Source: a bacterium | GTDB lineage: Bacteria; Patescibacteriota; Minisyncoccia; Phycocordibacterales; UBA5272 | DNA length: 64,000 nt | Direction: 5' to 3' | Assembly: GCA_023267635.1 (NCBI GenBank) | Contig: JAHFMX010000006.1 | Coordinates: 1,940-65,939 of the forward strand | Part shown: positions 27,301-64,000 of the stretch, piece after piece | How positions within the stretch are numbered: position 1 is the first letter of the stretch | Layout of the letters: each line of letters starts with the position of its first letter | Made by a program: the position numbers and the translations under genes | Notes under the pieces: model-generated | The model's input: only the letters and a program-made list of their open reading frames with translations | Told to the model about the DNA's origin: nothing | The model's database searches: none

Positions 27301-27385
27301 ATCAGAGTATCTTGCACAAGCCAACAAAATAAGAGATAATGCAGAGCGCATAACACGCAATTACTACAATGCACATGTGGAATAA
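15356..27385 (+). CDS. giant 4009-aa multi-domain protein, candidate injected polyvalent/ejection protein with two zincin-like HExxH motifs
   Basis: Uninterrupted 12 kb ORF. N-terminal glycine-zipper hydrophobic segments (VIGGLIGGALGG...IGGLIGGGLGYLG). HEFLH at nt 18386-18400 and HEAQH at nt 19199-19213. Four copies of a D-I/L-LYSK linker motif. C-terminal hydrophobic stretches. Confidence 0.7.
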   Translation: MANLIGQQARVKPSDDQDFLGAINSYGGASSTSATTQKNPDQEFTDTINSYGDQTGTLGAYGQTFVQAAKGVPGFIGQAIEGGTPFDQENGVDQIVKDTQKSNEEFASGSDAEQPVLGGLAKVKDIKGSAGSLTSSLATMAPTVIGGLIGGALGGPAAPLTATAGATIGGLIGGGLGYLGMSRQSENQLIRDVVDKEDQTRSAQGKPLLNQDEKVAKQNALLESGDPQLQGFAEAAGETIGNFLEIAAAMTPLGKLGNVLKAVGGPFSGALATAALRGTGILAVENIEEQATNLVQNPIAKRQGLPEATAAETAKQTTLATLPFAALGMGVGGYHDYKSAKKEKDFQEYLAGASTEELQSNIQTLQTPSPEDDEQTAQYKQSLAQAYTDELNSRGTTDENNNQATGAEQPSGIGGIANRPTTLDRGTPKQEPGTNGQGVNVTEPAGASRRSVEPIPQEETRQPGLDERGSTLSNISDEGLKKAIELLNKHETDSPEAIKSKEDAITFYSNELERRKPPTQPIEETQNEKQKITNETDANANEANAETGQGQEGLQVIQPNITQPNITEEGTNLEQAGTATSKNAGQTTKEETGTTTVSSTGEGGLVNVNQAAPVTGIGAEQAKQGTSFGQPGLAESVEAQQKEEVVGSIPTTASVGATGAQKSKAPVVSEGAPQPATAGGQTTPDYSYLSDKGFTPEEIQHVGEASKTHKDLNGWARGRFGYDRVKGVNFTQSIAPNAPAINNEVDAAAHEAAASPLNDLAHPSQAQIEAENPKLGHIENFHGMSISIENPEGSVRSGVSLEGRPWQNTLKNHYGYIKGTVGNDNDHVDTFIGPDVGSQKAFIVNQNHVTRGIGTNRFDEHKVILGAKTKKQALQIYHDNYEKGWQGMGSITQMSVGQLKEQLGTGKLTKPVLQEQVSQQETNQSNKPEAPTPKGYMSTGDVFSRLTSKQRAFHKSGKLIVVPTEEQLPASLRPKKGEESSIPGLYHPKEDKIYVVAHNIKHDELNGLLAHEFLHRAVRVDKVFKGKFDKFDRGLTARFNMAGRGIGSDIEKAAYKHVVDAGTPQHQLLDEYKSYLVQEYAKNPDSFVGEIKRLIEEFIAAIKVALVKSGLDSGFIEKLTPADLYEMSKYGAEQVESTQPQKNNEALKSFIGVKSQTAPKYELSTAMSDIEAGENPEGVRKDTGWFKGADEHWRFEIDDSEAKLDEKEVNTLKGYYKLGRLSGLEKILIHPKLFAAYPQLRTIGIKFAKLQEGVGGGTSQDGKFITLNVDLKDDKILSVLLHEAQHAVQIHEGWAGGGSPSTFQKEFVERVELLEKIVKDINNELSVQAGIMNKYEVRGSYRKYTAPEGYTAAAKYDELMQERSDAAKSLRRIGLLNDVADTSRKIYSRLYGEIEARNVQRRMDFSAQEREKFSPEGTQDYANKDAVILWANADVKGLLFPENEADLLYSKKTKTQEGIKLNERKPTEISTKETSEYTKRNILNTSRLDRTSHAEKRYFQERSGNSAERVRGIKGVFSPGKSITSDFEKAGVPSPEYHEWFNGNKMVEKYMGIMTKAQNTKFGAAVYIYPKEDYRKMRIFVTPDELSGFALKTDGDIVSVVSLPEAPSGRVYSMMALATELGGTKLDAFDTVLPEIYAVSGFKEVGRVNWNEDYKPDNWDKEVFSKFNNGEPDVVFMEYDPTYSPFKRSEIEVSLSNAQHTIPGISKLTKEFVDGDTTAGVLLRELGHDSLDYLTSGIKSVSISYKDPTGVYGGDKEPSLGVAASFEEKDRKEVLRALAQFAKNFDQEQFHVLGSVGTNTEVMHVYDDGSYNTKVYSFTLNKVPSEKEVSKLINNSGLYGLTISGSTLESYYVEQDQNDANEYKEWTSKIDKLHEIISGRNLKSYGEKVARLWVYGSGNRAISYGQIEGKFHPSYTDQGQKASQRVASRLIGRDVKAPSIPKTVTPEQKALQASIAQAYDEMRINALDQTNVIRAYKELASEVLDQYNAMPIKVEVWSGQGEPYSAKGKVSSAEMRKDIAENNHLYIYKTEADSFGPPGVIYDSHPLLEQTGIKDINGVPLVYNDLLRAVHDYYAHTMTDASFGPIGEEAAWKTHMLMTRSPWAKWALTSETRGQNSWVNFRASVQGLPLNERGFAIQKVDLLPKKFLYTGDIVADANLSELPDEGALYSKNLNMSKEARMQRAVEQGFDTSKIMYHGTGGNIKAFDLSFGGQTSHSEVGKLGVSLSDAPLVANEFAGMAGRRELRNANVMQLLYKPGKQLEINLPDAGLVDTIKKAWADGYDSVRFNNYRTPLGYKGNVYIIRRPSDIRSIYAAFDPSQHGSSDILYSKNLDLSHKARMERAVEQGFNINHKFVHVSPHALPTELRNDKTLYLSDNFKYAERYASPSASSMGGKTGDYYSNLAPTSTPVYIKEKNVFDTRKPKDRKLFNEKFLNKYGNGTPLQKSGLPDWVEAEDFREFFEDNNLDYNGVIVDEGADPNDKGGVTKRGISYAMFDPSAVRSVHAAFDPAQQDSSDILYSKKAKPELYSALERGINNSPDRIFNAPASQVKSWLNSNAPKLGIKSDEIYWTGINEYLDSLGNTKTSKQSVLEFISKNKVNPIDKILGVESKDLNDIRLEINDLENEIDVLEHNYPGSSGNEVYEEDEDGNEVYADSDYVQELRDEHEKIIDEKTKELDRLKEDEEELAEESEGKHSGDRLNLPNGRDYRELVVTIPGIRKFNEEDATHFGDVGEGTQISWIRYDSRTDANGESSLFLEEVQSQRGAEGRTKGFGDYDVVKAHEISKKLHSIALKEINLESELENNGGTLSPEKWKELESLKEEHDLLIAEQKKEESKRTLVPPAPFITDSKNKATNTYISLLLKKAVIQAINNGHSSVSWTTGDQQADRYDLSKMVLAIRYNHLGDLVTTKVDDSVWQTIATGVPENKIADYIGKEAAEKLLSQDKDVYGHRTITGNDLKVGGVWTGDMYGDARGLNAQGKPSLITQAASEISRKFGGRIGAISIPGLRYRSEFGNPSITPELEQPALIITPEMREKVLAEDLPLFSRRATFTQTVQNQFQKVKHFATGFDQGISTLADMRSVLSTGHMPTKHIDKQSILDKVATYLVDSSRPFDVWTRRLPNTVKAAQLVLSKDLAKRRTAVMSKEALDTYLRPLSKVIKKIASDIGMDHWAAQSMAGYWMSMRYAIEKNQDFIRQDKEAYEQAITNLMSNPTNASLVKLVNKAADKQAARIAAINEQREIDPNNETLQAGLAGGYNDFTATKLMNEIESKIPRAYLEEAAQHIYDMMKWKTERDLKNGKVTQEQVDSWFNSPFYVPLTGDPSVDESEDSLFNPGGINQAKDKSAVGRKGSLAQSGIDAATEQVEKSAKYHGWVDFKNRLVETYDELIAEEMAQGASKQEAKDNVEREYGITKTPETRVVGTDQGALLLPSQNPTGITVRKNGESNVYDLHNQEAVDALKSVNKEDVPSILRPVANFTRTYARFVTQLLPGFGPVNAIRDTWERSENIRTRVLEEYPDLNMDQVARDAIKTAADPRLIRKIAGVMLENSSLSSKFPINEDDPDIKTLRALIEEGGASTVGDYLATSGRDLAKQMKDSLKLSTEAWNLVSAWNNSFELVSSLSIFKALTSAGVNNKTAAATTLNLMNFGKQGTMIGPLKALYTFVNPTVQGGHQLLQTLTTRKGQARAVAYTLAGIALYGMLRAWDGDDDDLGENKMDNQGMFISERNILIPYGDGNYVKVPVGFGLPQLTWSAAVNLDKWMFGKQKGEDTVAGILKSTARNFAPVAPSETNISQHPIYWMAQTFSPQIAKPLVNVGLNINTFGSSLTNAGYGKEGISEALQGRKSTAQEWKDIAVELGKLGIDLYPEQVREIVRGFAVGPVNEVIKATIENPNREKLGRTTVNNLVDRWVSVHDSGALKERLYYMHRDEMNAAARKESLGTELSSKETGLAKLNRSISKLEGSANGKRAAAAKAIKAGKSGSEYLAQANKIRDNAERITRNYYNAHVE

Positions 27386-30775: not shown

Positions 30776-32281
30776 TTATTTTCTTTTCCTTTGTTGTGCC
30801 AATTTCTTTAGGCCATCAAATAAAGACTCCTGGCAGTATTCTTTATTCTTCAAAGCTTCAATAACAAGGCTTTCAACCGTATTTTCAGCTATCAAATGGT
30901 GTACAAACACATGAGAATGTTTGTTCCCTTGTCGGACTAGCCGTTGTATCAGCTGGTCATAGTTCTGGTAGTTCCATGTCAAAGTATACCAGCAAATATG
31001 TTGCCCACACCCCTGTAAATTAAGCCCCAGGGCCATAGATTGTGGTTGGCCGGCCAATAGTGGGAGCTTCCCCGCATTCCAGTCAGCTACGATCTTTTGA
31101 CCTTCTTTTACATTAACACCACCACCAATGTAGGGTAGGTCTTTGCCGAAACGCTCTTTAAGCCTTTCAAGGTCATGATTGAACTCATAAGCTACCAGCA
31201 ATGGCTCCCCATTCAGCTCATTTACAAGTGCTTCCAGGGCTTCACCCTTGGCATCATGAAGGGGCATCCAATCTTTTTTCTTATTCTTCTTCTGCTCTAT
31301 CTGGAACCCAGTTATTGTAAGATCAGGCTCCATGTAAATCCCACCACTGGCTATTTGCCTGCATCGGCTGGACTTAATAGCAGCTGTTCCAGCCACGATA
31401 AGTTTACTGTCTATCTCTGCAATCAGGTTCTCTTCAAATTCATCATAGAGCTTGCGCACCTTCGGGGGAAGCTCTATATTGACCACATTATTAACCACAA
31501 CGGGGAGCTCCAGATAATCCCGTGCTTGGAGCTGGAAAACAAGCGGCTTTATAGCTTCATAGATTTCCTTCTCTTTGCCGGGCTTCACCGTCCAGTTATA
31601 TCCTGAGTAGTCAGAATCAAAGTAGTTCATCCTGTAGTGTGTTATGTACTTCCCTAATGCTTGCCCACTATCTAGCATGTAGCACTCACCAAACAAGTCC
31701 AGGAGCCCATTAGATGCCGGTGAACCAGTAAGCCCCCAGCGCCGGGTGAATGTGTCCAGGATAAGCTTCATGAGATCAAAGCGTAGTGTATTATGGGCTT
31801 TGAATGCTGAGAGCTCATCAATAACAAGGGTGTCGAAGCCCAGGTCTAGCCATCTTCTTTGTTGCTCTTTGGTAAAAAAGTATTTCTTTTTACCATTCTT
31901 ACTACCCTCACTTGGTTTGATCAACCATTTAAGGCTCTCCGGGTTAATGATGTAGATGTCGGCTTCACGTTCAAGAGCCTGCTCTTTTTTTGTTCCGGTT
32001 ATGATCTCAATGCGTAGATCGAAGGTCTGAGTCCACTTCTTGATTTCCTGAGCCCACACATTATGGCACACCCACGGTGGTGCAATTATAAGGGTTTTAT
32101 AGATTTGTCCTTCAGCCATAAGCTTCTTAAGGGCGAGAAGAGTCACTAAGGTTTTCCCCAGTCCAGGCTTCATGAATAAGCCCACAGACTGGTTGTCGAG
32201 AAGGAACTTCAAAGCTTTCTTTTGGTAAGCATGAAGTACAGCTTTTTGTGGGGGTCTGTAGTAGGTTAGTTCGTTACTCAT
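30776..32281 (-). CDS. SNF2-family (DEAD/DEAH-like) helicase
   Basis: Motif I FMKPGLGKTL, motif II LVIDELSAF, motif VI QLIQRLVRQGN (QxxRxxRxGQ). Confidence 0.75.
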   Translation of the reverse strand: MSNELTYYRPPQKAVLHAYQKKALKFLLDNQSVGLFMKPGLGKTLVTLLALKKLMAEGQIYKTLIIAPPWVCHNVWAQEIKKWTQTFDLRIEIITGTKKEQALEREADIYIINPESLKWLIKPSEGSKNGKKKYFFTKEQQRRWLDLGFDTLVIDELSAFKAHNTLRFDLMKLILDTFTRRWGLTGSPASNGLLDLFGECYMLDSGQALGKYITHYRMNYFDSDYSGYNWTVKPGKEKEIYEAIKPLVFQLQARDYLELPVVVNNVVNIELPPKVRKLYDEFEENLIAEIDSKLIVAGTAAIKSSRCRQIASGGIYMEPDLTITGFQIEQKKNKKKDWMPLHDAKGEALEALVNELNGEPLLVAYEFNHDLERLKERFGKDLPYIGGGVNVKEGQKIVADWNAGKLPLLAGQPQSMALGLNLQGCGQHICWYTLTWNYQNYDQLIQRLVRQGNKHSHVFVHHLIAENTVESLVIEALKNKEYCQESLFDGLKKLAQQRKRK

Positions 32282-32942
32282 TTTCGAACCTGATCATTAA
32301 CTCAGGGTAGCACTCCATCCAGCTATCTACGTGATAGGAATTTACCTCGCCGTAGTTTGCATCAAAGACTTTCTTTGGTAGCTTTCCAGTCATGAAACCA
32401 TGACGCTTCAGATCGAACCAACTAATTGTTTTCCAGCTAATGTTATTGACGTGGGCTACACGCTTAATACTTAGCCACTCTTCAGACTCATCAAGACGTT
32501 CTTCAAGTGCTGCTGCTTTACTGGTTACATTTTCAAGTTGTGACAAAGCAGTTTCTTTCTCCTTTTCACTTTCAATTAATGCTTGCAATGCTGCTATGTA
32601 ATTAGCTGGAAGTTTTGGTTGTGCTGCTTCAAGCTCCTGCCAACGATCAATAACCCTCATTAATAAATTCGTATTAAGCCTGGCAGAAACGGCAACTGAT
32701 TGTCTCTTATCAAGTTGGTATGTTTCAAGTTCTATTACTGCTCCTATATTGTTTGTGTACGAGGTACGAATTTTTCGTAACTCACCAAACTCAAGGCTTG
32801 CAGACATTTTAGAAACAATTTTCATTGCATCATTATGTCTGGTTTCTAAGAGATCAGTTATTTCTTTTAGTGTCATTGTCTGTACTTCTACCTTAATCAA
32901 TTCTTTCATTCTAAATTTCCTGTAACTCAAAAAAAACCCCAC
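32274..32942 (-). CDS. Rha-family phage regulatory protein (paralog 1)
   Basis: N-terminal TMTLKEITDLLETRHNDAMKIVSKM ... DRWQELE resembles the Phage_pRha domain; C-terminus YGEVNSYH shared with 34073-34675. Confidence 0.55.
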   Translation of the reverse strand: MGFFLSYRKFRMKELIKVEVQTMTLKEITDLLETRHNDAMKIVSKMSASLEFGELRKIRTSYTNNIGAVIELETYQLDKRQSVAVSARLNTNLLMRVIDRWQELEAAQPKLPANYIAALQALIESEKEKETALSQLENVTSKAAALEERLDESEEWLSIKRVAHVNNISWKTISWFDLKRHGFMTGKLPKKVFDANYGEVNSYHVDSWMECYPELMIRFENE

Positions 32943-34072: not shown

Positions 34073-34675
34073 TTATACTACCTCATCGAGAATGTTTTGA
34101 TGGTAGGTGTTCACCTGTCCATATTTTGCACTATGTGCTTTTCCTAGTGGTATGCCCTTGTCTTTTGAGAGCTTCACAGCCTTCTTACCAACTCTACCGG
34201 CTTCTACTGAGTCAATTTGAAGACCAAGCTTTGAGTAGTAACCAGCAACTGTGTAGTAATCATCGGGGGTTGCTGCTATCTTTGCTTGTATCTCAATTAT
34301 TTCAGACCTCATTGTATTAAGATTCTTCTCAAACTCAACCATTGCAAGAGCTGTCTGTGCTATTAACTCCATTGCTGTTACAGGGGCTTTTATCTGCTCT
34401 TCAAGTTCTTGCCAACGGTCAACAAGCTTAGCAGTGAACTCCGGTGATAATTGAGCGACAATTACATAACTGTCTCTTTTACATATAAGATACTCTTTAC
34501 CACATACATTATTGATATTCTTGAAGTTCCCCAATGGGGGAGATTGAATTACTCCACGCTCTACAAGTCTTTCAATTGATTGCTTAACTTTATCATGCCG
34601 GGATTCTACTAATTCAGCTATTTCACGGCTAGTCATTGTCATTGCATTTTTTTGTACCATTACTTCTTTACTCAT
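34073..34675 (-). CDS. Rha-family phage regulatory protein (paralog 2)
   Basis: MTSREIAELVESRHDKVKQSIERL ... DRWQELEEQ; C-terminus YGQVNTYH. Confidence 0.55.
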   Translation of the reverse strand: MSKEVMVQKNAMTMTSREIAELVESRHDKVKQSIERLVERGVIQSPPLGNFKNINNVCGKEYLICKRDSYVIVAQLSPEFTAKLVDRWQELEEQIKAPVTAMELIAQTALAMVEFEKNLNTMRSEIIEIQAKIAATPDDYYTVAGYYSKLGLQIDSVEAGRVGKKAVKLSKDKGIPLGKAHSAKYGQVNTYHQNILDEVV

Positions 34676-37570: not shown

Positions 37571-38221
37571 TTAGTTTTTTGTTAATTGATAACTGCTGAC
37601 TCTGATTTCTTCAGCATAGGCTTTCAAGATGATCTTGCGTGTTGCGTAGTCCTTATCAAGACCAAGCAGGACTATGTTTTTAGCTTCTAATCTTCCTAGC
37701 ATATCAAGTTCATTAGCAGGTAGAACTTCTCTATCCAGACCTGCAAATTCACCTTTAAGGCACCAGTTTACCAATTTACTCTCATTCATGAAATGATGTT
37801 GTTCAGTATTCTTACCCTTTTCAAGTCTCATTATCTGCAAGACTTCAGACATAGCTTTATAGCTTGATGCTGCTATTGCTCTGGACTTATCCCAACTACT
37901 ACCATCACGGATAATGTTGTCAATTTGCTCATCACACCAAATTGCAAAATCAACGCTCAGCCATCTTGAATAAGGAACTGCCAATTTTGGATGAAACCAA
38001 GTCCCTAATGAGTTTTTACCAGACTTTGTGATATACCATTTGTTTATATCTGGGTATCTTCTTGTTAAAGCAGCAATGTAGGCACGGGTATCCTGCCTTT
38101 GGAGCCAATGAGCTGGATTTACACCAAAGGGTTTACCTGCTTCGGTTGCAGAAAACCAAGCAGATTTATTAAATGTTATATTTTGACCATCATACATTGT
38201 TTCTATAAGTTGCTTATCCAT
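37571..38221 (-). CDS. KilA-N (APSES-like) domain protein
   Basis: NITFNKSAWFSATEAGKPFG ... GTWFHPKLAVPYSRWLSVDFAIW resembles the KilA-N/Bro-N core. Confidence 0.5.
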   Translation of the reverse strand: MDKQLIETMYDGQNITFNKSAWFSATEAGKPFGVNPAHWLQRQDTRAYIAALTRRYPDINKWYITKSGKNSLGTWFHPKLAVPYSRWLSVDFAIWCDEQIDNIIRDGSSWDKSRAIAASSYKAMSEVLQIMRLEKGKNTEQHHFMNESKLVNWCLKGEFAGLDREVLPANELDMLGRLEAKNIVLLGLDKDYATRKIILKAYAEEIRVSSYQLTKN

Positions 38222-52820: not shown

Positions 52821-54977
52821 ATGTCAGTAGCCCCTGAGAGTGCTAGAGAGCTTCTAAGAGCGAAGGTCGAAGTAGCCAGAGAGATAGAGAAGCGAGAGTG
52901 TGAAAAGTCTCTAGCAGAGTTCTGTCGCTCTGCATGGCACATCATAGAGCCGGGAACTCCACTCAAGTGGAACTGGCACATTGACACTATCTGCGCTTAC
53001 ATCCAGGCTTTCCATGAGGGGAAGTTACCGGATAAGAGGTTGATCATAAACGTACCTCCAGGGACTTTAAAAAGTATCATTGTCTCTGTGATGTACCCAT
53101 CTTGGGCTTGGATCAAAGACCCTTCTACTCGGTTCTTGGCTATCAGTAACGCTGCTTCTTTGGCTACTCGTGATGCATTGAGAATGAAGTCAATCGTCAC
53201 ATCCCCTTGGTATCAGAGCCACTGGCCAACGACATTGAGGATCGATCAGAATGAGAAGAACCTGTTTGTTAATGGCACACAAGGCTTCAGGCAGTCACAA
53301 GGTATAAGTGCATGTACCACTGGGAAGCGTGGAGATTGCTTTCCAGAATATATGGAAGTGTCTACAGAGCATGGGATGAAGAAGATTACAGAAGTTAAGG
53401 TCAATGACTTGGTTTGGTCTATGAACACTAAGACCGGGGGTGTAGAGTTAAAGCCAGTCACTCACTTAGTGCACAATGGCACAAGTGAGATTGTTGAAGT
53501 AGTGCTTAGTAATGGTCAGATAATACACTGTACACCTGACCATAAGGTTTGGACTATTGAAGAGGGTATGGTTAGGGCTGATAGCTTAGTGTCTGTTAAG
53601 GGCTCTGAGCTCTCTCTTGACATCATTAGCATAATTGGCACTAATTCCAAACAATTTAGCAAGCTCTTTACCAGTCATGGTGGAGTTAACAAACCTCTCT
53701 TCACTCCTGATAAGACCTGTGTTGCTGATAGAGTAAGCACCCTCATAACCAGGGATAGTACGCCACTCAATGTTGTTAGTAGTAGAAGTATTGGGCATAT
53801 TAGTGATACCTACTGTTTGTGTGTGAAAGACAATGCTACATTATTTGTAGGAACAAGACAAGTGCTTGTCTCCAATTGTCTAATAATAGATGACCCCGTA
53901 GACAGCCAACAAGCCTTCTCTGATGTTATTAGAGAATCAGTTAACAATACGTGGGATAATGCTTTGTCATCAAGATTAAATGACATGACAAAATCCGGAG
54001 TGCTATTAATCCAACAAAGGGTTAATGAACTTGACCTTACTGGGCATCTGCTAAAAAAAGTAAAATCACATTGGACACATCTTAGCATTCCAATGAGGTA
54101 TGAAGGAACATCAACGTTTAATCCCATTAAAGATATTGGAAATGCTGAAGTAAAAGACCCAAGAATAAAAAAGAGTCAACTACTATTTCCTTCTCGATTT
54201 CCTGAGCGTGCAGTTCAATCGTTAGAGGAAGACTTAGGAGAGTATGGTACTTCGGCTCAGCTTCAACAAAGACCGGTTCCGGCAGGCGGCGGAATTATAA
54301 AAAAACATTGGTGGCGTGTCTTACCAGAAGACGAAATGCCAAAGATCATCAACGTCTTCATCAGCTTCGACACTGCGTTCTCAGAAGCAGACTCAAAGAC
54401 TTCTGCGTTCTCCGCCGCGACGCGCTGGGGTATCTTCTGGCATGAGCAAAGACAACGCTACTGTCTCTTGGCGTTGGGCATGTGGTTCGCACGGGTAGGC
54501 TACGACGAGCTACGTGCTACAGTCCAGGCCATGAACAAAGACCATGATCCCGATGTGCTACTCATCGAAAAAAAGGCAACAGGCATAAGTATCATACAAG
54601 ATTTGAAGAGATCAGTTCCAGGTAAGGTAAGAGCGTACTGCCCAGGCAAGGGAGAAGACAAGATCAGTAGAGGAAACTCAGTATCCCCTATGGTGCAATC
54701 AGGTCAATGCTATGTACCTAACAAGACTTGGGCTTTAGGTGATGGTAAGGGCAAGCTAGGTTTGATTGATTACATTGCTAGTTTTCCCGGAGGTGCACCA
54801 CCCGCGCCAGACATATTTGACTCATTTTCAGCGGCACTCATATTCATGCGCTCAGGCAATTGGCTCGGAGATCATGATGACGACAAAGACTGGACTAATG
54901 TTATCACACACGTGAGCTCTGAAGAGGAGGATGAAGACCTTGAAGACTCAGCAATACCAACTCGATTTTATGGCTAA
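52821..54977 (+). CDS. terL: terminase large subunit (ATPase plus nuclease) interrupted by a mini-intein
   Basis: N-terminal LIINVPPGTLKS (Walker-A-like, PPxxGKS class); Walker B LIIDDP re-formed when the extein junction GKRGD | CLIIDDP is joined. Confidence 0.7.
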   Translation: MSVAPESARELLRAKVEVAREIEKRECEKSLAEFCRSAWHIIEPGTPLKWNWHIDTICAYIQAFHEGKLPDKRLIINVPPGTLKSIIVSVMYPSWAWIKDPSTRFLAISNAASLATRDALRMKSIVTSPWYQSHWPTTLRIDQNEKNLFVNGTQGFRQSQGISACTTGKRGDCFPEYMEVSTEHGMKKITEVKVNDLVWSMNTKTGGVELKPVTHLVHNGTSEIVEVVLSNGQIIHCTPDHKVWTIEEGMVRADSLVSVKGSELSLDIISIIGTNSKQFSKLFTSHGGVNKPLFTPDKTCVADRVSTLITRDSTPLNVVSSRSIGHISDTYCLCVKDNATLFVGTRQVLVSNCLIIDDPVDSQQAFSDVIRESVNNTWDNALSSRLNDMTKSGVLLIQQRVNELDLTGHLLKKVKSHWTHLSIPMRYEGTSTFNPIKDIGNAEVKDPRIKKSQLLFPSRFPERAVQSLEEDLGEYGTSAQLQQRPVPAGGGIIKKHWWRVLPEDEMPKIINVFISFDTAFSEADSKTSAFSAATRWGIFWHEQRQRYCLLALGMWFARVGYDELRATVQAMNKDHDPDVLLIEKKATGISIIQDLKRSVPGKVRAYCPGKGEDKISRGNSVSPMVQSGQCYVPNKTWALGDGKGKLGLIDYIASFPGGAPPAPDIFDSFSAALIFMRSGNWLGDHDDDKDWTNVITHVSSEEEDEDLEDSAIPTRFYG
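53337..53876 (+). mobile_element. 180-aa mini-intein (Hint domain, no homing-endonuclease insert) inside terL
   Basis: Starts at Cys (CFPEYMEV, block A); TPDH block-B-like; ends VLVSN followed by extein Cys; inserted exactly at the Walker B motif. Confidence 0.55.
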
Positions 54978-54994: not shown

Positions 54995-55273
54995 ATGAAC
55001 AAACTAATTTTAATCTCTATACTTTTAACTGGATGTGCTACTGCAAGCAGAGACATCACATATTCTGATGGCACTACATCACACCTCTATGTCTTTGAAC
55101 TTGGAAGGACTGAGGCAATAACAGCACTCAATGCTTCTGAGTCCAGGGACTCAAGTAACTTATCAGTAGGTTCTGCTAATGCAGATGTGAATGTAAAGGC
55201 TATTGATGCTTCAGGTGCATTGATTGGGGATGCTATTGGTACAGCTCTAAAAATATTTGTAGGTAAACCATAA
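54995..55273 (+). CDS. lipoprotein (lipobox LLTGC); candidate spanin component
   Basis: MNKLILISILLTGCATAS signal plus lipobox; glycine-rich amphipathic C-terminus; immediately upstream of the endolysin. Confidence 0.45.
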   Translation: MNKLILISILLTGCATASRDITYSDGTTSHLYVFELGRTEAITALNASESRDSSNLSVGSANADVNVKAIDASGALIGDAIGTALKIFVGKP

Positions 55274-55848
55274 TGGCAGACTTTAAAAAAGCATACAACA
55301 TAACGATCAAGAACGAAGGACTTTACAGTGTAGACCCAGATGATATGGGGGGAGAAACTTTCAATGGCATATCCAGAAAGAATTGGCCTAGTTGGAGTGG
55401 GTGGAGTGTAGTAGATGGTGCAAAAGTAAATGGAAAGCTAAGAATAACACCAGACTTCATGAACAAGATTGCTCCATTGGTTTTTAATTTCTACAAGGCA
55501 AACTTCTGGGACGCAGTGCGGGGGGATGGCATACCTAGTCAAGCTATTGCCAATGAATTATTTGACACCGCTGTGAATGTTTCTGTGCACCAAGCCACCA
55601 TGTTCTTGCAAGCGTCTCTGAACATCATGAATAACAGGGGGAAATTGTGGCAGGATATTAAGGAAGATGGTAAATTTGGTGCAGGTACTTTGAGCTCTCT
55701 GCAAACTGCGGTCAAGGTTCGTGGGGAAGCAATGGTGTACAAAGTTCTTAACTGCTATCAAGGAGCTTTTTATATCAATCTCATGGAGAACAAAGAACTT
55801 AATGAGAAGTACATCGGTTGGTTCAACAGAGTTAACACAAACATATAA
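55273..55848 (+). CDS. endolysin: GH108 lysozyme-like domain plus PG_binding_3 domain
   Basis: IKNEGLYSVDPDDMGGETFNGIS (GH108 EGGY...DP.D.GG.T..GI motif); FYKANFWD...LFDTAVN...DGKFGAGTL typical of PG_binding_3. Confidence 0.7.
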   Translation: MADFKKAYNITIKNEGLYSVDPDDMGGETFNGISRKNWPSWSGWSVVDGAKVNGKLRITPDFMNKIAPLVFNFYKANFWDAVRGDGIPSQAIANELFDTAVNVSVHQATMFLQASLNIMNNRGKLWQDIKEDGKFGAGTLSSLQTAVKVRGEAMVYKVLNCYQGAFYINLMENKELNEKYIGWFNRVNTNI

Positions 55849-55869: not shown

Positions 55870-57771
55870 ATGGCTACTAATATTACAGTTAATGATAAAA
55901 AATTAACAAACGTTGCAACTAATCAAGCAATATGTACTAATTTCATTAGCACAATACGATATGCAAACTTTTCGACTACTTATTATGTAACAGAAGATGT
56001 AGCTCAAATCTCTGTAATCTTTCCAAACTGGTATGTTGATCAAGGTGCCACTCAAACAGAACTAGGCTCCGGTTCAGATATTACAATAGAGGCAAGTATA
56101 GAGTACCCACCAAATGTATTTAACCCATTAACATTTTCTGGTAAAACTATAGGCACCATTCCAAATGGTGAAAATATTGTTGCTGATGCTGTGAGACTGC
56201 GACTACAAAAAGGTGAAAAATTTAAACTAAGAGGCTACTTGGTTACACCTTCAGGAATGCCATTAATAACTACTATTTTCATTGATCCTGAAGGAACTCT
56301 ATGTGAAACAAGCGCGACATTATTGACAAATAAAACTTTGGGCGGTGATATAGTCAATACATCTTCTGGTTTTGATTCACAATCTTATGGAAGCGTCGCC
56401 ATATTAGGCTTAGCGTCTGGGCCTAGTGTATATGTTATAGGAACGTCCAGGACTAGAGGCTCATTAGACATTAAGGACCTATCTCTAGGGACTGGTGAAG
56501 TATGCAGAACATTGGCTAATAGCAATATTTCTTTTTGTAATGCAGCCGTCGGCAGTGATGGAATATTCTACTTTTTGAGATCAAATGCTAAAAGAATTAA
56601 ATTACTACAGTACTATAACAACATTGTTATTTCACATGGTGTGAATGATCTTCTTTACTCCCCCGGAGCATTTTTCTCTTATTACAAAGCTGTATTGGAG
56701 TTAATACCAAAAGATATAGCAGTTTTCTTGTGTACAATAGCACCTTGGACTACTTCTACCGATGGATGGGCAACTACGACAAACCAAACTATTACAGCTA
56801 ATGAGCCAAATAGACTAGTATTTAATTCAACCTTAAAAAATGGAAAAATTAAAGGAGTATCTGGGTACTTTGACATAAATGATGCTCAATCAAGTAGCTT
56901 TCTATCTGGTAAATGGGAGCCAGGGGCAACTGATGACGGCATACATGCAAATGGTTTTGGGTATCAATTGCCAGTTTATAGAAAAGCAATAGACATAACA
57001 AAGTTTAAGCCACAAACAAACACGCAAGATAAAATAGAGTTCCCATATACTGAGGTATTCACATTTACATGGTCGTCTGGGGGAGCTAAAACATTAACCT
57101 TTACACCGACATCTGATGCTGGGATAGTCTTTGAAAACTCAGATGGTGTTATACAAAATAATGGGTTTTCTAGCACTGTAAAAAAAGGTGAGAAAATGAG
57201 GATTAAGGCAAAGTATCCAGAATTTATTGGGTATCTTAACTTCAATTCAAAAGGAGTTATTAGCACTGTATTTCCTAGTCTTACAAAGTACGTTGAACTT
57301 GTATCTTTTGACTGCTCTTCTAACACTATCTCTGGAACAATAGGAACCCTAGATTACAATCCGTTGCTCGTTAACTTTTTTGTACTTCTTAATCAATTGA
57401 CTGGAAGCATACCAAGCTTAACCAAAAATACCTTACTAGGCTCTTTCCAAGCACATTTTAATCAAATATCTGGGGGTATTCCTGATCTGAGTGCTAATAC
57501 TGTTTTAACAACATTTGATGTTCATAGTAATCAACTTACAACTTATGCAGGCGGAACCATAGGGCCTATACTAAGAACATTCAATGCTTCTAGTAACTTA
57601 CTACCTGCTGCTGAAATAAATAAAATACTGGCTGCTTTTGTAGCAGCAAACATAACCACAGGAACAAGAACGCTGACACTTGGAGGAACTGGTAATGCTG
57701 CTCCTACTGGTCAGGGAGTTACAGATAAAGCAACGCTTATAACAGCTGGCTGGACTGTTAGTACTAACTAG
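55870..57771 (+). CDS. tail fibre/spike with SGNH-hydrolase-like esterase domain and C-terminal leucine-rich-repeat-like segment
   Basis: SGNH block III ISHGVNDLL and block V TDDGIHANGFG; C-terminal NQLTGSIPSLTKNTLLGSFQAHFNQISGGIPDLSANTVLTTFDVHSNQLT. Confidence 0.5.
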   Translation: MATNITVNDKKLTNVATNQAICTNFISTIRYANFSTTYYVTEDVAQISVIFPNWYVDQGATQTELGSGSDITIEASIEYPPNVFNPLTFSGKTIGTIPNGENIVADAVRLRLQKGEKFKLRGYLVTPSGMPLITTIFIDPEGTLCETSATLLTNKTLGGDIVNTSSGFDSQSYGSVAILGLASGPSVYVIGTSRTRGSLDIKDLSLGTGEVCRTLANSNISFCNAAVGSDGIFYFLRSNAKRIKLLQYYNNIVISHGVNDLLYSPGAFFSYYKAVLELIPKDIAVFLCTIAPWTTSTDGWATTTNQTITANEPNRLVFNSTLKNGKIKGVSGYFDINDAQSSSFLSGKWEPGATDDGIHANGFGYQLPVYRKAIDITKFKPQTNTQDKIEFPYTEVFTFTWSSGGAKTLTFTPTSDAGIVFENSDGVIQNNGFSSTVKKGEKMRIKAKYPEFIGYLNFNSKGVISTVFPSLTKYVELVSFDCSSNTISGTIGTLDYNPLLVNFFVLLNQLTGSIPSLTKNTLLGSFQAHFNQISGGIPDLSANTVLTTFDVHSNQLTTYAGGTIGPILRTFNASSNLLPAAEINKILAAFVAANITTGTRTLTLGGTGNAAPTGQGVTDKATLITAGWTVSTN

Positions 57772-57867: not shown

Positions 57868-58713
57868 ATGGCAACACCAACTGTAACACTTTGGCCTTCA
57901 GCATCAAGTACAAAGCTGTCCAATATTTTATATGACCTAAGCACTAATACAACAGCCGGTGTGGGCACGTTTGTTGTCCCAAGCAATGTCAGTCTTATCT
58001 ATGTTGATGCTTGTAGTGGAGCCGGTGGCTCAGCCGGTGGACATTCTGCTGACCCAGGCGGTGGTGGTGGAGCCGGTGGATCAGGGCAGTGTGTTAATAT
58101 GTTATCTTTGGCAGTAACACCAGGAAGCACCCTAACATTAACAATCGGCGCAGCAGGAACACCTGGTACAGCAGGCAATGACGGTGCAACTTCAGGAGGA
58201 AACACGACAATAGATGGTGTTATATGGACTGGTTCATCAACGCCAAATTTATTCAAATTAACAGGAGGCATTCTTGCCTCAAAAGGTACTGTTACTAATG
58301 GTGGAGCAGGTGGTTCAGCAGGTAGTTCTTCTGCTGCTGCTGGAGCTACTGGCACTGGCACTGGTGCAAGTGGTGGTACAGTTTCTTCAGTTATTGGAGT
58401 TTTAAATTCGAGAGCTTATTCTGCGGCAGGTGGTTCAGCAGGTGGTGGTGCTACAGGCCCAGGAGCTGGTGGTGCTGGTACTGCTATAGGTATAGCAACA
58501 GATTCCAGTATATTTATTTCTGGTGGTGCAGCATCTGGCACTAAGGGTGGTGGTGCAGCAGGTACTAATTCACAATATGGTAAAGGCGGAGCTGGTGGAA
58601 CTGGCACAACTCCAGGTGGTAATGCTACTGGATATGGATCGTCAGGTGGCGGCGGAAGTGCTACTACAGGTGGTGGTTTAAGTATGCCAGGCTTTGTTAT
58701 GATTTATTATTGA
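57868..58713 (+). CDS. glycine-rich virion protein
   Basis: GAGGSAGGHSADPGGGGGAGGSG and repeated GG-x-G tracts, about 30% Gly; AGGAG SD. Confidence 0.45.
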   Translation: MATPTVTLWPSASSTKLSNILYDLSTNTTAGVGTFVVPSNVSLIYVDACSGAGGSAGGHSADPGGGGGAGGSGQCVNMLSLAVTPGSTLTLTIGAAGTPGTAGNDGATSGGNTTIDGVIWTGSSTPNLFKLTGGILASKGTVTNGGAGGSAGSSSAAAGATGTGTGASGGTVSSVIGVLNSRAYSAAGGSAGGGATGPGAGGAGTAIGIATDSSIFISGGAASGTKGGGAAGTNSQYGKGGAGGTGTTPGGNATGYGSSGGGGSATTGGGLSMPGFVMIYY

Positions 58714-59383: not shown

Positions 59384-59604
59384 CCACACTGGTAGCAATT
59401 AAAGATTTAAAAATGAGATTACATGGAGAATCTTTTTGGAGGGAGTATCACAAAGGTACAGAATTTGGGCTTATGGAGTACTCACAAGAAGAACCAAGAC
59501 CTTTGTATGCACATGTCAGTCTTCCTGATGGTGGTGATTCTTGGGCACCTTTGTTCAACCACGCCAGAAAAGAGCACAAACCAATATTTTTAACGAAGGG
59601 CTAG
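59380..59604 (+). CDS. hypothetical protein
   Basis: ATGA-coupled internal start of ORF 59314-59604. Confidence 0.3.
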   Translation: MTTLVAIKDLKMRLHGESFWREYHKGTEFGLMEYSQEEPRPLYAHVSLPDGGDSWAPLFNHARKEHKPIFLTKG

Positions 59605-59613
59605 AAAAGACAA

Positions 59614-59784
59614 ATGAATAAAGTAGAAGAAACTTTAAAACACCTGGTTCTTAGAGGCCCTACGAAAAGTAGAGTAAACCTGCATAAGAATGCTAATGGT
59701 AGTTTGGACAATGCGTACTCGATTGGAGTTAAGGACGGTAAAATACTTTTGGCTAGAGAACTATTGAAGGAACTTAATAAATGA
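59614..59784 (+). CDS. small ORF (56 aa) coupled to portal start
   Basis: ATGA overlap with 59781. Confidence 0.25.
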   Translation: MNKVEETLKHLVLRGPTKSRVNLHKNANGSLDNAYSIGVKDGKILLARELLKELNK

Positions 59785-62213
59785 GTACAATGAATTATGG
59801 TCTTGGTGACGAAGATATAGCAGTTCCAACTTGGGAAGAAGCAGCTAAACCTGATATTGTAGAAGTTATGAAATTTGTTGAGGAGGCTGAGGCTAATGGA
59901 CTTGCACCTGAAGAAGTTTTATCACATGATCAGATGATGGTGTGGGAAGAATTCTTGGCTACAATGAATAGTGCAGAGCAGCCTCTTGAGCACTTTGCTG
60001 ATTTAACTGACTACATTGATAGCGTTGATCACAGTTACTTAGGGGGCTTGGCTTCCGATGTAATCAACTGGGTTATGTGGGACGAGGAAACCAGGAGAGA
60101 TTGGGAGTACCGTGAGGCAGAAGGCATTAGATTACTAGGAGTCTCAGACACACCATTAAGCAAAGCTCTCTTTGAAGGAGCGAGTCAGTTAGTGCACCCG
60201 ATACTAGCAGAGGCAACAATAGACTTCCATTCAAGAATGATGACTGAAATATGGCCTCCTGAAGGACCAGTCAAAGCCATTGTTCTTGGAGACTCAACAC
60301 CAGAACTAGAAGAACAGGCTGATCGTGTTTCAGATTACATGAACTATCAGTACACTGAAGACATGCCTGGTGGGTTTGAAGAAACTGACGCTATGCTGTT
60401 TAGGCTTACGCTTTCAGGTTCTTGCTTTAAGAAAACCTACAATGACCCTCTTACAGGTAAAAACGTTTCTAAGAAGGTAGAGGCTTCAGACTTCATAGTG
60501 CCCTACTCAGCTACAGACTTGGTATCAGCTCCACGCTTCACCCACAGATACCGGATGAATCACAACACAGTACTTAAACATCAACAAGCCGGATACTTCA
60601 CTAAACTTGTTGATGTACAACTGCCTACAACTACCAATGACACAACACAGAAATCCCCTCAACGAAGAGAGATAGATAGCGTAGAAGGGAGCAATGAAGG
60701 TTCTTCTATTGAAGACCCTACACATATTTTAATGGAAATGGTTGTGGACTTGGAAATTCCTGGAATGGAGGACACTGATCCAGTTACCGGTAAACCTACA
60801 GGCATCCTTAGACCCTACTTAGTTATTGTTGATTATGACTCTCAAAAGATTCTGCGAGTCCAAAGAATGTGGGAGCAGGATGATGAGAAGAAAGAAAAAA
60901 TTGTTGAGTACACTCATTTCAGACTTTTCCCTGGCCTTGGATTCTATGGTATGGGTCTTTTGCATTTTATGGGCAATCTGGTACTTGGTGCTAGTGGTTC
61001 GCTAAACAGTTTACTTGACTCAGCTGCATTCAGCAATTTCCAAGGGGGCTACAGATCAAGTGATGCACGAATATCTGGAGATCAGAAACCTCTGAAGCCC
61101 GGTGAATGGCGTGAGCTTAAGAACGTAACCGCAGAGGACTTACAGAAGGCTTTTTTCCGAGTGCCTTATGGGGAGCCTTCAGATGTTTTGTTTGATGTTC
61201 TGAAGTACCTGGATGAAAAAGCTTCAACCAGTTTCCTCTCAGCCGGACAAGTGATGACCGGCGAAGCAAACAACAATGCCCCGGTTGGGACAACCCTAGC
61301 TCTTATTGAGCAAGGCTCCAAGCCATTCAATGCAGTCCACATTCGTTTGCATCGTGCTATGCACGAAGAGTTCAGACGGTTGGCTAATCTTAATGGTAAG
61401 AACGTCCCTGAAGAAGGATACCCATACGCCATAGCAAGTAAGTCTAAAGTTATTTTTGCTGCAGACTTCGATGAAAGAGTCGATGTAATACCTGTTTCTG
61501 ACCCTAACATCATTAGCTCAACACAAAGGATTCACATAGCCCAAGCTGTTTTGCAAGTGGCAGAAGCCCATCCTGATGAAGTTAATATTTCTGAAGCAAT
61601 CAAGGCTTTCTTTACAGCGATCAGAGTGCCTAATGTTGATGCACTTATAGCAGATAACCAAGCAATAAAAGCCAATCAACAAAGAATGGCAGACATTGAG
61701 TATGAAGCCAAGCAGAAGGATATTGCCAAAGTACAGGCTGAGATAAACAAGCTTGAGGCTGAACGTGTACAAGTTACATTGACAGGAATGTACACAGCAT
61801 ACCAGGCGGCGCAAGTTGCCGTACAAGATGCAATGGGCACACCTGCTACGGTTGACCCTAAGACAGGAGTGGTTATTCAAGGGACTGCTCCTGGCCTTTC
61901 AGTTGCTACAGTTGCAGAACAGCTATTTCAAAGTGCCGGTGGTAAAGATTGGAATGGTTCACCACTACTTGATGAGGCACATGCTCAAGCACAACCACAG
62001 CAACCAGTTTTATCAAACTTTGCTCAAACACCTATGCAAGCACAGACAGCAGCTGTTGGTAATAACACAAGTCCAATGTTTCCGGCTAACCCTAAGATGC
62101 CTGAAGTGGGTACACCACCTTCAACAGCTCCTGTGGCAGCTCCTGCAAGTGGGTTAGTTGGAGCTAATGCAGGGATCGAAACACAAAGAGCTGATGGTGG
62201 ACTGAGTGCCTAG
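59781..62213 (+). CDS. putative portal protein with long C-terminal helical (barrel-like) extension
   Basis: 810 aa; sits between the terminase and the scaffold-like gene; C-terminal Q/A/K-rich helix (QRMADIEYEAKQKDIAKVQAEINKLEAERVQ) reminiscent of P22-type portal barrels. Confidence 0.45.
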   Translation: MSTMNYGLGDEDIAVPTWEEAAKPDIVEVMKFVEEAEANGLAPEEVLSHDQMMVWEEFLATMNSAEQPLEHFADLTDYIDSVDHSYLGGLASDVINWVMWDEETRRDWEYREAEGIRLLGVSDTPLSKALFEGASQLVHPILAEATIDFHSRMMTEIWPPEGPVKAIVLGDSTPELEEQADRVSDYMNYQYTEDMPGGFEETDAMLFRLTLSGSCFKKTYNDPLTGKNVSKKVEASDFIVPYSATDLVSAPRFTHRYRMNHNTVLKHQQAGYFTKLVDVQLPTTTNDTTQKSPQRREIDSVEGSNEGSSIEDPTHILMEMVVDLEIPGMEDTDPVTGKPTGILRPYLVIVDYDSQKILRVQRMWEQDDEKKEKIVEYTHFRLFPGLGFYGMGLLHFMGNLVLGASGSLNSLLDSAAFSNFQGGYRSSDARISGDQKPLKPGEWRELKNVTAEDLQKAFFRVPYGEPSDVLFDVLKYLDEKASTSFLSAGQVMTGEANNNAPVGTTLALIEQGSKPFNAVHIRLHRAMHEEFRRLANLNGKNVPEEGYPYAIASKSKVIFAADFDERVDVIPVSDPNIISSTQRIHIAQAVLQVAEAHPDEVNISEAIKAFFTAIRVPNVDALIADNQAIKANQQRMADIEYEAKQKDIAKVQAEINKLEAERVQVTLTGMYTAYQAAQVAVQDAMGTPATVDPKTGVVIQGTAPGLSVATVAEQLFQSAGGKDWNGSPLLDEAHAQAQPQQPVLSNFAQTPMQAQTAAVGNNTSPMFPANPKMPEVGTPPSTAPVAAPASGLVGANAGIETQRADGGLSA

Positions 62214-62430
62214 TATGAAAGACAAAGTACTTGAAGATTTAATAAGTGAATTGAAAGAAAGGAGAACTGCTGTTAGCTCAAGTATTCTGAAGGGGCGCTT
62301 AAGCTTTGAGGAGTACAAAAGGCAGTCAGGAATTTATTGTGCTATTGATGACACATTGGCAAGCATAGCAGTTAAGCAGGGTTCTGAGTCTACCAGAGAA
62401 GAAAAAGAGTTTGATGATCTAACCTGGTAA
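62206..62430 (+). CDS. small hypothetical protein
   Basis: ORF only. Confidence 0.3.
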   Translation: MPSMKDKVLEDLISELKERRTAVSSSILKGRLSFEEYKRQSGIYCAIDDTLASIAVKQGSESTREEKEFDDLTW

Positions 62431-62517
62431 ATCAGGGGGTTTTTCTTTATTGTTAAGAAAAACATGACTTATAATAATTTTGAATAAATACTCTAACTAA
62501 TTTTACATAGGAAATTT

Positions 62518-62913
62518 ATGAATTTTGAAGCTGAAAACGTGCCACTTGAAAAGTTACCTCAACCAGCAGGTTGGAGAATTTTAGTTGCACCGGTTAAGAT
62601 TGAAAAAGTTTCACAAGGCGGGATTGTCCTTGTCGATGATACTACTGAAGCAATGCAGTACTTCAGAAATGTTGGTAAAGTTTTGGCGGTTGGTAGTGAA
62701 TGCTACAAGCATCCAAAGTTTCAAGGTGGCATTGAGCTCACTGTTAAAGAACCGAGAGCCTGGTGTAAAGTGGGCGACATTATCCATTTCAATTCATTCA
62801 ATGGTGCGGACATAGTCCTCCATTATGAAGGGGAAGCGATAAAGTTAAAAATAATGAATGACGATTGTGTATTTTCGGTTATCCCTGATACGGATGTTCT
62901 GAAACTTGTATAA
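62518..62913 (+). CDS. GroES/Cpn10-like co-chaperonin
   Basis: Aligns by eye to E. coli GroES across both halves: RILVAPVKIEKVSQGGIVL ... GKVLAVG (RVIVKRKEVETKSAGGIVL ... GEVLAVG) and CKVGDIIHFN (VKVGDIVIFN). Confidence 0.7.
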   Translation: MNFEAENVPLEKLPQPAGWRILVAPVKIEKVSQGGIVLVDDTTEAMQYFRNVGKVLAVGSECYKHPKFQGGIELTVKEPRAWCKVGDIIHFNSFNGADIVLHYEGEAIKLKIMNDDCVFSVIPDTDVLKLV

Positions 62914-62944
62914 CCTGCAATAAGCAGCGAAAAGAGAGTTTACT

Positions 62945-63778
62945 ATGAATGAAGACGAGGGCTTTGACCCGGTAATAATTGATTCAGACATTGAGCTGGA
63001 TTTTGTTAATGATGAGCTTGTAGATAAGCTTGCAGAAGAAAAGAAAGTTGATGTAGAAGACAAGCCAACTGAAGACGAGGACGACGACAACACCCGGTAT
63101 GGTAAGAAGATTGAAAAGCGTTTTGCCAAGATAACTAAAAGGCACTACGAAGAGATTAACGAGTTGAAGAACCGTTTAACCTCAATGGAGAATGAGAATA
63201 AGGAACTCAAAGCTTCACAACATGCAGACAAGAGAACTCAGGAAGACCTGGACTACTCAGCTAAAGTTAGTGAGCTTTTAAAAAGTAAAAAGGAAGCACT
63301 TGATGTTGGAGATCATGATCAGGTGATTGATCTTGATCAAAAGATCATGGACTTGAAGATTGAGAAGAGTCGAGTGACTCCTCAAGTTGTTGAGTCAAAA
63401 CCTCAACAGAAAGCCCCGTCTAGTGAGGCTTCAGCACCACAAGCTTTGCTGGACTGGGAAGCTGAAAACCAATGGGTTTATAACCCTAAATTGGCTGCTA
63501 AGAAGGCTAAGGCTAATGAATTGCTTAAGTCACTTGTTGCTGAAGGCTGGGAAGTAAATGACCCAGAAACATTTGAAGAGCTTGACAAGAAGTTAGCAAG
63601 AGCTCCAGTAAATCCTTCAACAAGTGTTGATCGAGGCTCCTCTGTGGAGGGCACTGGCACTAGAGAAACCGGGCTATCAAGCACACAACGCAAACTACTA
63701 GCTGGAATGGGTCTGGATGTAAATGATCCAAAAGTAATAGCAAGGTTCAAAAAGAACACTAAGAGGAACGCAGCATGA
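62945..63778 (+). CDS. scaffolding-like protein (acidic, helical)
   Basis: Acidic N-terminus (EDKPTEDEDDDN), long K/E helices; position between portal and the next long ORF. Confidence 0.4.
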   Translation: MNEDEGFDPVIIDSDIELDFVNDELVDKLAEEKKVDVEDKPTEDEDDDNTRYGKKIEKRFAKITKRHYEEINELKNRLTSMENENKELKASQHADKRTQEDLDYSAKVSELLKSKKEALDVGDHDQVIDLDQKIMDLKIEKSRVTPQVVESKPQQKAPSSEASAPQALLDWEAENQWVYNPKLAAKKAKANELLKSLVAEGWEVNDPETFEELDKKLARAPVNPSTSVDRGSSVEGTGTRETGLSSTQRKLLAGMGLDVNDPKVIARFKKNTKRNAA

Positions 63779-64000
63779 GCAGGCCAGTAAAGAATTTAAA
63801 TACTTCAAGGGTGAGCAGAGAACAGGAAACACGTTCTTCTGCACCCTTGCATGAAAACTATGATGTGTCGTTAGATGATGACTATGAAGATGATGGTCTT
63901 TTATCTACACGTCGCATACCCGCTAGGGAAGGCTACCACCAAAGATGGGTGCGCACAACAATACATGGGGTCGAGGATTCTTCCAACGTCCAAAGAATGT
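63778..64000 (+). CDS. 5' part of a long ORF running off the window; probable major capsid protein by position
   Basis: ATGA-coupled to scaffold-like gene; open to the window end. Confidence 0.3.

Follow-up and report, generated by a model that had tools for sequence, protein, structure and literature searches.

Phage-encoded co-chaperonins that act on the GroEL of the host in head folding have been described in T4 (gp31) and RB49 (CocO), and both of these proteins are without a roof hairpin (summarised in PMC5649160). GroES-only genomes are common in virioplankton (Marine et al. 2017, PMC5649160); in 53.6% of the GroES-only contigs, a 'kinesin-like' gene lies immediately downstream of GroES and is followed by the head protein, which, according to the same authors, may depend on the host GroEL, as in T4 (PMC5649160). 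GroES was also reported in the phages HTVC023P and HTVC027P (bioRxiv 10.1101/2019.12.14.876532), and in HTVC023P-type phages it belongs to a set of 13 core genes (PMC9599517). We searched the literature for virion proteomics on this clade of GroES proteins and for functional tests of them, and obtained nothing relevant. The gene described here adds one divergent member to this very abundant family of aquatic-phage co-chaperonins. Its product is new and fairly divergent, and because the family, its synteny and the host-GroEL idea have all been published already, little is changed by the finding as such. Its interest lies in the conserved non-GroES features of an abundant clade, and in the fixed position of the gene in the capsid module across unrelated hosts, which makes the idea of a phage GroES folding head proteins on the host GroEL testable.

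The window, by which we mean the whole stretch of DNA analysed (64,000 nucleotides), appears to be a rotated, nearly complete tailed-phage genome, either circular or terminally redundant. The head module begins at the end of the window, running from the terminase to a scaffold-like gene, and resumes at the start of the window with an SU10-type adaptor; because this adaptor belongs to the opposite end of that module, the window is read as a rotated circular genome. About 2.7 kb of the phage genome lie outside the window, in a part where relatives have head genes and within which, just past the end of the window, the major capsid gene falls. The genome is that of a phage of ~67 kb with an SU10-type head module, in contrast to the T4-like myoviruses. 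The window also encodes a DNA polymerase, an exonuclease, a helicase and a primase. The features of the head module are as follows.

52821 to 54977, + strand: large terminase, 718 aa, interrupted by an intein (PHROG 38, terminase large subunit, 4e-67)
59781 to 62213, + strand: portal protein, 810 aa (PHROG 1216, portal, 6e-18)
62206 to 62430, + strand: small ORF between the portal and Cpn10 genes, 74 aa (71 aa as called on other contigs)
62509 to 62514, + strand: Shine-Dalgarno-like AGGAAA, three bases 5' of the Cpn10 ATG, read directly from the sequence
62518 to 62913, + strand: Cpn10/GroES-family co-chaperonin gene, 131 aa, 14.6 kDa, pI 5.3
62945 to 63778, + strand: acidic coiled-coil protein, 277 aa (composition, position and a homologous family in 8 phages)
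63775 to 64000, + strand: first part of a head-module ORF of 175 aa that continues past the window end (phrog_36003; complete on the identical contig L006)
678 to 1403, + strand: SU10-type head-tail adaptor (Pfam SU10_adaptor, 7.5e-16; phrog_399)

The intein of the terminase (Pfam Intein_splicing, 37.1 bits against a gathering threshold of 35.8, residues 185-340, with the Hint module starting from residue 168) sits between the N-terminal ATPase part of the protein (residues 19-173) and its C-terminal part (residues 353-680), and the terminase of one relative (L012) likewise carries an intein.

The original prediction placed a 131-aa product at 62518-62913, and this placement is borne out: the ORF, as read from the + strand of the window sequence, starts with ATG and stops with TAA, the same 131-aa gene was called by independent gene callers on three other contigs, and the identical protein is also present on a contig of 66,757 bp. 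The gene is preceded by a gap of 87 bp (62431-62517). Scanning 59500-64000 for promoters and terminators, we found a promoter-like TTGTTA-17-AATAAT within this gap (62450-62478) and a weak hairpin with a T-run (62423-62436) that overlaps the stop of the 74-aa ORF. Shuffled sequence contained such sites at least as often as the scanned region did, and we therefore claim no separate transcription unit for the Cpn10 gene.

Similarity of the product to GroES, which had been proposed by eye, goes well beyond chance by Pfam, PHROG, phmmer and BLASTP. The Pfam Cpn10 profile (PF00166) matches residues 15-104 at 27.2 bits, above its gathering threshold of 21.1 (E = 4e-6), and PHROG 3188, 'co-chaperonin GroES', matches residues 14-122 (E = 1.7e-15). 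With the single sequence as query, the best phmmer match in the PDB is a 10-kDa chaperonin (E = 2.4e-4, residues 16-122), and BLASTP against E. coli GroES gives 29% identity (E = 6e-6). We also searched the PDB with a profile built from 124 family members that included no bacterial GroES. This family profile matched solved chains of chloroplast Cpn20 at 7e-21, of bacterial GroES at ~2e-15 and, from the 1AON complex, of E. coli GroES at 2e-7. Cpn10 matches were thus obtained in Pfam, in PHROG and with the family profile, the kind of search in which the original prediction had expected its support. Matches to NCBIfam were 13 in number and all to GroES models (NF0015xx equivalog and subfamily models), the best at 26.7 bits vs. 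cut-offs of 96-215. Because these scores are far below the cut-offs, the protein is, by sequence, a divergent homologue and not an ortholog-grade cellular GroES. The resemblance to GroES that its sequence shows distinguishes it from T4 gp31, in whose sequence none can be detected.

Modest E-values are all that the single-sequence searches of Pfam and the PDB provide, and these would be compatible with an ORF that arose by chance or resembles GroES spuriously. Against such an explanation stand 17 close homologues that are conserved over the full length at 47-59% identity, the profile E-values of 1e-15 to 1e-21 to solved GroES structures, and a confidently predicted GroES fold. We consider a chance ORF to be excluded by the conservation among homologues, the profile matches, and the predicted fold with its Foldseek matches.

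The fold was predicted with AlphaFold (AF2) as a monomer. From the alignment of 124 sequences, the model reached a pLDDT of 87.8 and a pTM of 0.82, and only this model was used, a model from a 17-sequence alignment (pLDDT 42) having been discarded. Its least confident stretch, residues 31-50, lies at the position of the GroES mobile loop. In a Foldseek search of the PDB, the top 27 matches were all GroES, Cpn10, Hsp10 or T4 gp31 chains (target-normalised TM 0.54-0.75), with T4 gp31 (1G31, 2CGT) ranking after the GroES, Cpn10 and Hsp10 chains (1G31 at E = 5.6e-3); the search returned nothing significant beyond these families, and no capsid or assembly protein was matched. Among predicted viral structures, the top Foldseek matches were entries named 'Co-chaperonin GroES [uncultured virus]' (A0A221S...). 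The GroES beta-barrel, the absence of which would have spoken against the original prediction, is thus present in the predicted structure, and we are confident of this fold as far as a model can convey it. Four independent lines agree on GroES homology, namely curated profiles, solved structures matched by sequence, the fold and the functional motif described below, and on these grounds the 131-aa gene is confirmed as a real, divergent phage-lineage member of the Cpn10/GroES family.

Three sequence elements had been named in support of the GroES assignment. The GGIVL motif of the mobile loop is present at residues 34-38, identical to residues 23-27 of E. coli GroES, and the VLAVG strand is present at residues 55-59, identical to residues 40-44. 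The third, given as KVGDI-x-FN, is found as KVGDIIHFN (residues 84-92), which agrees with the KVGDIVIFN of E. coli GroES at 7 of 9 positions; the strand itself is therefore there, although the spacer consists of two variable residues instead of one. The protein accordingly shares with cellular GroES, Cpn10 and Hsp10 (e.g., E. coli GroES, chain O of 1AON) the Cpn10 domain, the predicted beta-barrel and the GGIVL, VLAVG and KVGD elements. It differs from cellular GroES by its low identity, by extensions at both termini, by a longer loop, by a roof that is longer by ~10 residues, by a G-W-R motif where GroES has H-D-R, a replacement seen in the window protein and its family, and by its gene setting, a phage head module as opposed to the groESL operon. 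Two regions of the gene concern us in particular.

62602 to 62676, + strand: mobile-loop coding region (residues 29-53), placed by alignments to GroES, with GGIVL at 62617-62631
62695 to 62769, + strand: enlarged 'roof' region (residues 60-84), placed by alignments and column frequencies, with the motifs C/A-Y, K-F and P-W-C-K

Column frequencies were taken from a MAFFT alignment of 275 sequences (274 relatives and E. coli GroES), which was used for family frequencies only, since the E. coli GroES row is misplaced near VLAVG; correspondences to E. coli GroES come from pairwise and small alignments. In the mobile loop, which is 4 residues longer than that of E. coli GroES, G34 is conserved in 256 of 275 sequences, G35 in 267 and I36 in 244, and the tripeptide at the GroEL-binding position (I36-V37-L38) is fully hydrophobic in 230 of 274 relatives. 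Conservation outside the loop is of similar extent, with P14 in 262 of 275 sequences, W19 in 218, Y63 in 241, W82 in 222 and C83 in 212. The roof motifs C/A-Y, K-F and P-W-C-K are conserved in the family and absent from GroES, and residues 70-79 form an insertion of ~10 aa that is specific to the subclade of the window protein (28 of 275 sequences). The model presents the roof with confidence as a short helix (residues 66-69) and coil, not as a beta-hairpin. Relative to GroES, the window protein is extended by 14 aa at the N-terminus and by ~9 aa at the C-terminus, and the family medians of the two extensions are 28 and 10 residues (the former counted as residues before the conserved proline), compared to 4 and 2 in E. 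coli GroES. We also considered C62 and C83 as a disulfide or metal-binding pair and rejected this pair as a family feature, because C83 occurs about as often with A62 as with C62 (102 A/C vs. 104 C/C).

The terminal strands of GroES form the interface between subunits of the ring. Extensions at these strands, together with the conserved motifs that GroES does not have, could, judging from the sequences, point to an altered or additional activity. They are compatible with an explanation in which the Cpn10 fold has been exapted as a dedicated procapsid-assembly factor that binds the scaffold-like or the capsid protein directly, by surfaces specific to the family, and works either free of GroEL or as a client-specific adaptor instead of a generic lid, an explanation that we regard as unlikely. 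It would account for family-specific residues whose conservation is close to that of the mobile-loop motif, for N- and C-terminal extensions that occur family-wide, for a score below the NCBIfam GroES cut-offs, and for the strict adjacency of the gene and the scaffold-like gene, seen in every relative examined. It fits poorly with the retention of the GG and hydrophobic tripeptide in at least 84% of the members, with the predicted flexibility of the loop, a property shared with GroES, and with the lack of any structural match to capsid or assembly proteins. The combination of GG and hydrophobic tripeptide is not known to have a role other than GroEL binding. Framed at the level of the clade, it is similarly unlikely that these Cpn10 proteins, in place of simply substituting for GroES, act in head morphogenesis as a factor inherited along with the SU10-type capsid module, whether as a client-specific adaptor that hands head proteins to the host GroEL or as a GroEL-independent assembly chaperone; if this were true, the surface formed by G-W-R, C/A-Y..K-F and P-W-C-K would, along with the terminal extensions, bind the adjacent scaffold-like protein or the capsid protein.

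The reading that we prefer, in which the protein serves as a GroES-like lid on the host GroEL, follows the example of T4 gp31 and RB49 CocO. The window protein resembles these two in being phage-encoded, in the GroES fold (predicted here), in a mobile loop that exceeds the GroES loop in length, and in that the window holds no phage GroEL, and a head protein as client is presumed by analogy with them. The roof region, which is deleted in gp31 and CocO, is retained and enlarged in the window protein, and for this reason the protein does not fit the variant in which the co-chaperonin provides a bigger cage. We scanned 20 ORFs of the 64-kb window against the PHROGs, including all ORFs of at least 500 aa, with the 4009-aa and 633-aa ORFs covered via Pfam and the portal via PHROG separately; no GroEL was found among them.

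The assignment of the gene to a capsid-assembly cluster was correct, and the cluster is kept in relatives at 25-37% identity. Its more precise placement between portal and scaffold genes is right as to the portal, which lies upstream, although the 74-aa ORF (62206-62430), which has no family match in Pfam or PHROG, intervenes between the two, and the scaffold label of the downstream gene rests on composition and position. That gene encodes a highly charged helical protein of 277 aa with a pI of 4.9, a net charge of -18 in the N-terminal 50 residues and of +6 in the C-terminal 40 residues. Only weak matches to KIF21A (kinesin, Pfam) and phrog_94 were obtained, and no curated scaffold family in Pfam, PHROG or NCBIfam covers it. 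Compared to HTVC027P gp56, the pairwise E-value is 0.03, and a multiple alignment shows shared motifs. The proteins encoded just 3' of Cpn10 across phages align as one family, the homologues of which were placed by multiple alignment at the following positions.

L001, 6349 to 7347: scaffold-like homologue
L002, 6376 to 7314: scaffold-like homologue
L003, 6425 to 7372: scaffold-like homologue
L004, 6400 to 7284: scaffold-like homologue
L005, 6348 to 7241: scaffold-like homologue
L009, 8487 to 9488: scaffold-like homologue
L012, 8484 to 9305: scaffold-like homologue

The 277-aa protein is, from its sequence properties, a probable scaffolding protein, and its gene is the counterpart of the one termed 'kinesin-like' in virome studies (PMC5649160). 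Members of this family share an N-terminal motif, Y-G/S-x-K-V-Q-K-R-I-A-K-L-T-K, an invariant W...N.W in the middle, the motif EGYDP.SDEYY and a basic C-terminal L-S/T-P-S-Q...LG segment; no curated family covers these proteins. On the identical contig L006, the 277-aa gene is followed by the 175-aa ORF and then by an ORF of ~172+ aa.

Comparing the head region at the DNA level with 50,697 phage records gave no match, and relatives were therefore sought by protein similarity. Except for its identical copy, no database entry exceeds 59% identity to the Cpn10 protein, and its nearest counterpart in a cultured phage is gp55 of HTVC027P (37.5% identity, tblastn E = 4e-16). The family is large: at E <= 1e-3, clustering at 90% identity gives more than 6,900 clusters, and at 50% identity there are 1,465 representatives. 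The order of genes, comprising TerL, a large SU10-type portal, small ORFs, Cpn10, a coiled-coil protein of ~275-334 aa, a protein of ~155-175 aa, a protein of ~190 aa and the major capsid protein, is kept in seven relatives: Pelagibacter phage HTVC027P, metagenomic phage DSL-LC04, Caulobacter phage RW, Synechococcus phage MinM2, Roseobacter phage CRP-902 and two metagenomic lineages. In these relatives, the gene at the position of the portal bears Pfam SU10_portal, and the major capsid protein is ~300 aa long and of the Phage_capsid_4 / Mu gpT-like type. The order recurs in phages of SAR11, Roseobacter, Caulobacter, cyanobacteria and a gammaproteobacterium, and the Cpn10 proteins of the seven relatives are 25-51% identical to the window protein. 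The GroES proteins of GroES-only virioplankton genomes, of HTVC023P-type pelagiphages (where GroES is a core gene) and of CRP-901-type roseophages are homologous to the window protein and have the same synteny in phages without GroEL; compared to this group, the window protein belongs to a separate subclade, with a short N-terminal extension of 14 aa and a roof insertion of ~10 aa.

That GroES-only genomes are so common in aquatic viromes and that the family is huge could also be explained if the protein were a general proteostasis booster or a means of host takeover, supplying more co-chaperonin or redirecting the host GroEL to phage proteins at large in slow-growing aquatic hosts, with no special link to the capsid; the small size of the capsid protein, which would fit an ordinary GroEL/ES cage, agrees with this as well. 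We nonetheless consider such a role quite unlikely. The gene is fixed in the head module in phages of Alphaproteobacteria, of Cyanobacteria and of a gammaproteobacterium, and is not found among early or auxiliary genes; this fixed place across hosts argues for co-inheritance with the head proteins.

Given that the capsid-cluster setting is conserved, that the window holds no GroEL and that the tripeptide is conserved, it is most reasonable to read the protein as one that assists head assembly together with the host GroEL. By analogy with the known phage co-chaperonins, we assign a probability of roughly 70% to a GroES-like lid that acts on the host GroEL in the folding of head proteins, likely of the capsid protein. 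Under this proposal, Cpn10 would be expressed together with the head genes, would assemble into a GroES-like lid, and would dock on the GroEL of the host, as the phage carries none of its own, through I36-V37-L38 of the mobile loop. The host chaperonin would thereby be adapted or augmented for proteins of the head module, most likely the HK97-fold major capsid protein of ~300 aa. In this scheme, the formation of a ring, the binding to GroEL and the choice of client are what we infer. Several points count against it. The capsid protein of ~300 aa is much smaller than the major capsid protein of T4, and an enlarged folding cage is not obviously needed for it, unlike for T4 gp23. We also counted against the lid the score of ~26 bits relative to the NCBIfam cut-offs, the terminal extensions, the GWR, CY..KF and PWCK motifs, and the ~2.7 kb that lie beyond the window.

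Several other genes of the window carry features of their own. A glycine-rich protein of 281 aa is encoded just 5' of the portal region (57868-58713, + strand; Pfam Gly_rich_2, 31 bits against a gathering threshold of 24.3), and a protein of 633 aa (55870-57771, + strand) has a weak, below-threshold match to GDSL lipases/acylhydrolases. Just before these two genes, contig L006 has a Glyco_hydro_108 / PG_binding_3 endolysin gene, which corresponds to 55273-55848 of the window. A 'polyvalent protein' of 4009 aa is encoded by a single ORF (15356-27385, + strand) with an inorganic pyrophosphatase domain (residues 765-902), LPD23 (1149-1204), a DUF6782 metallopeptidase-like domain (1226-1294), an ART-PolyVal ADP-ribosyltransferase domain (2193-2320) and LPD38 (3723-3883); it is probably a multi-effector virion protein that is injected. 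Amid the replication genes lie three genes with matches to Ant-type anti-repressors or KilAC-like transcriptional regulators, all on the - strand (32274-32942, 34073-34675 and 37571-38221).
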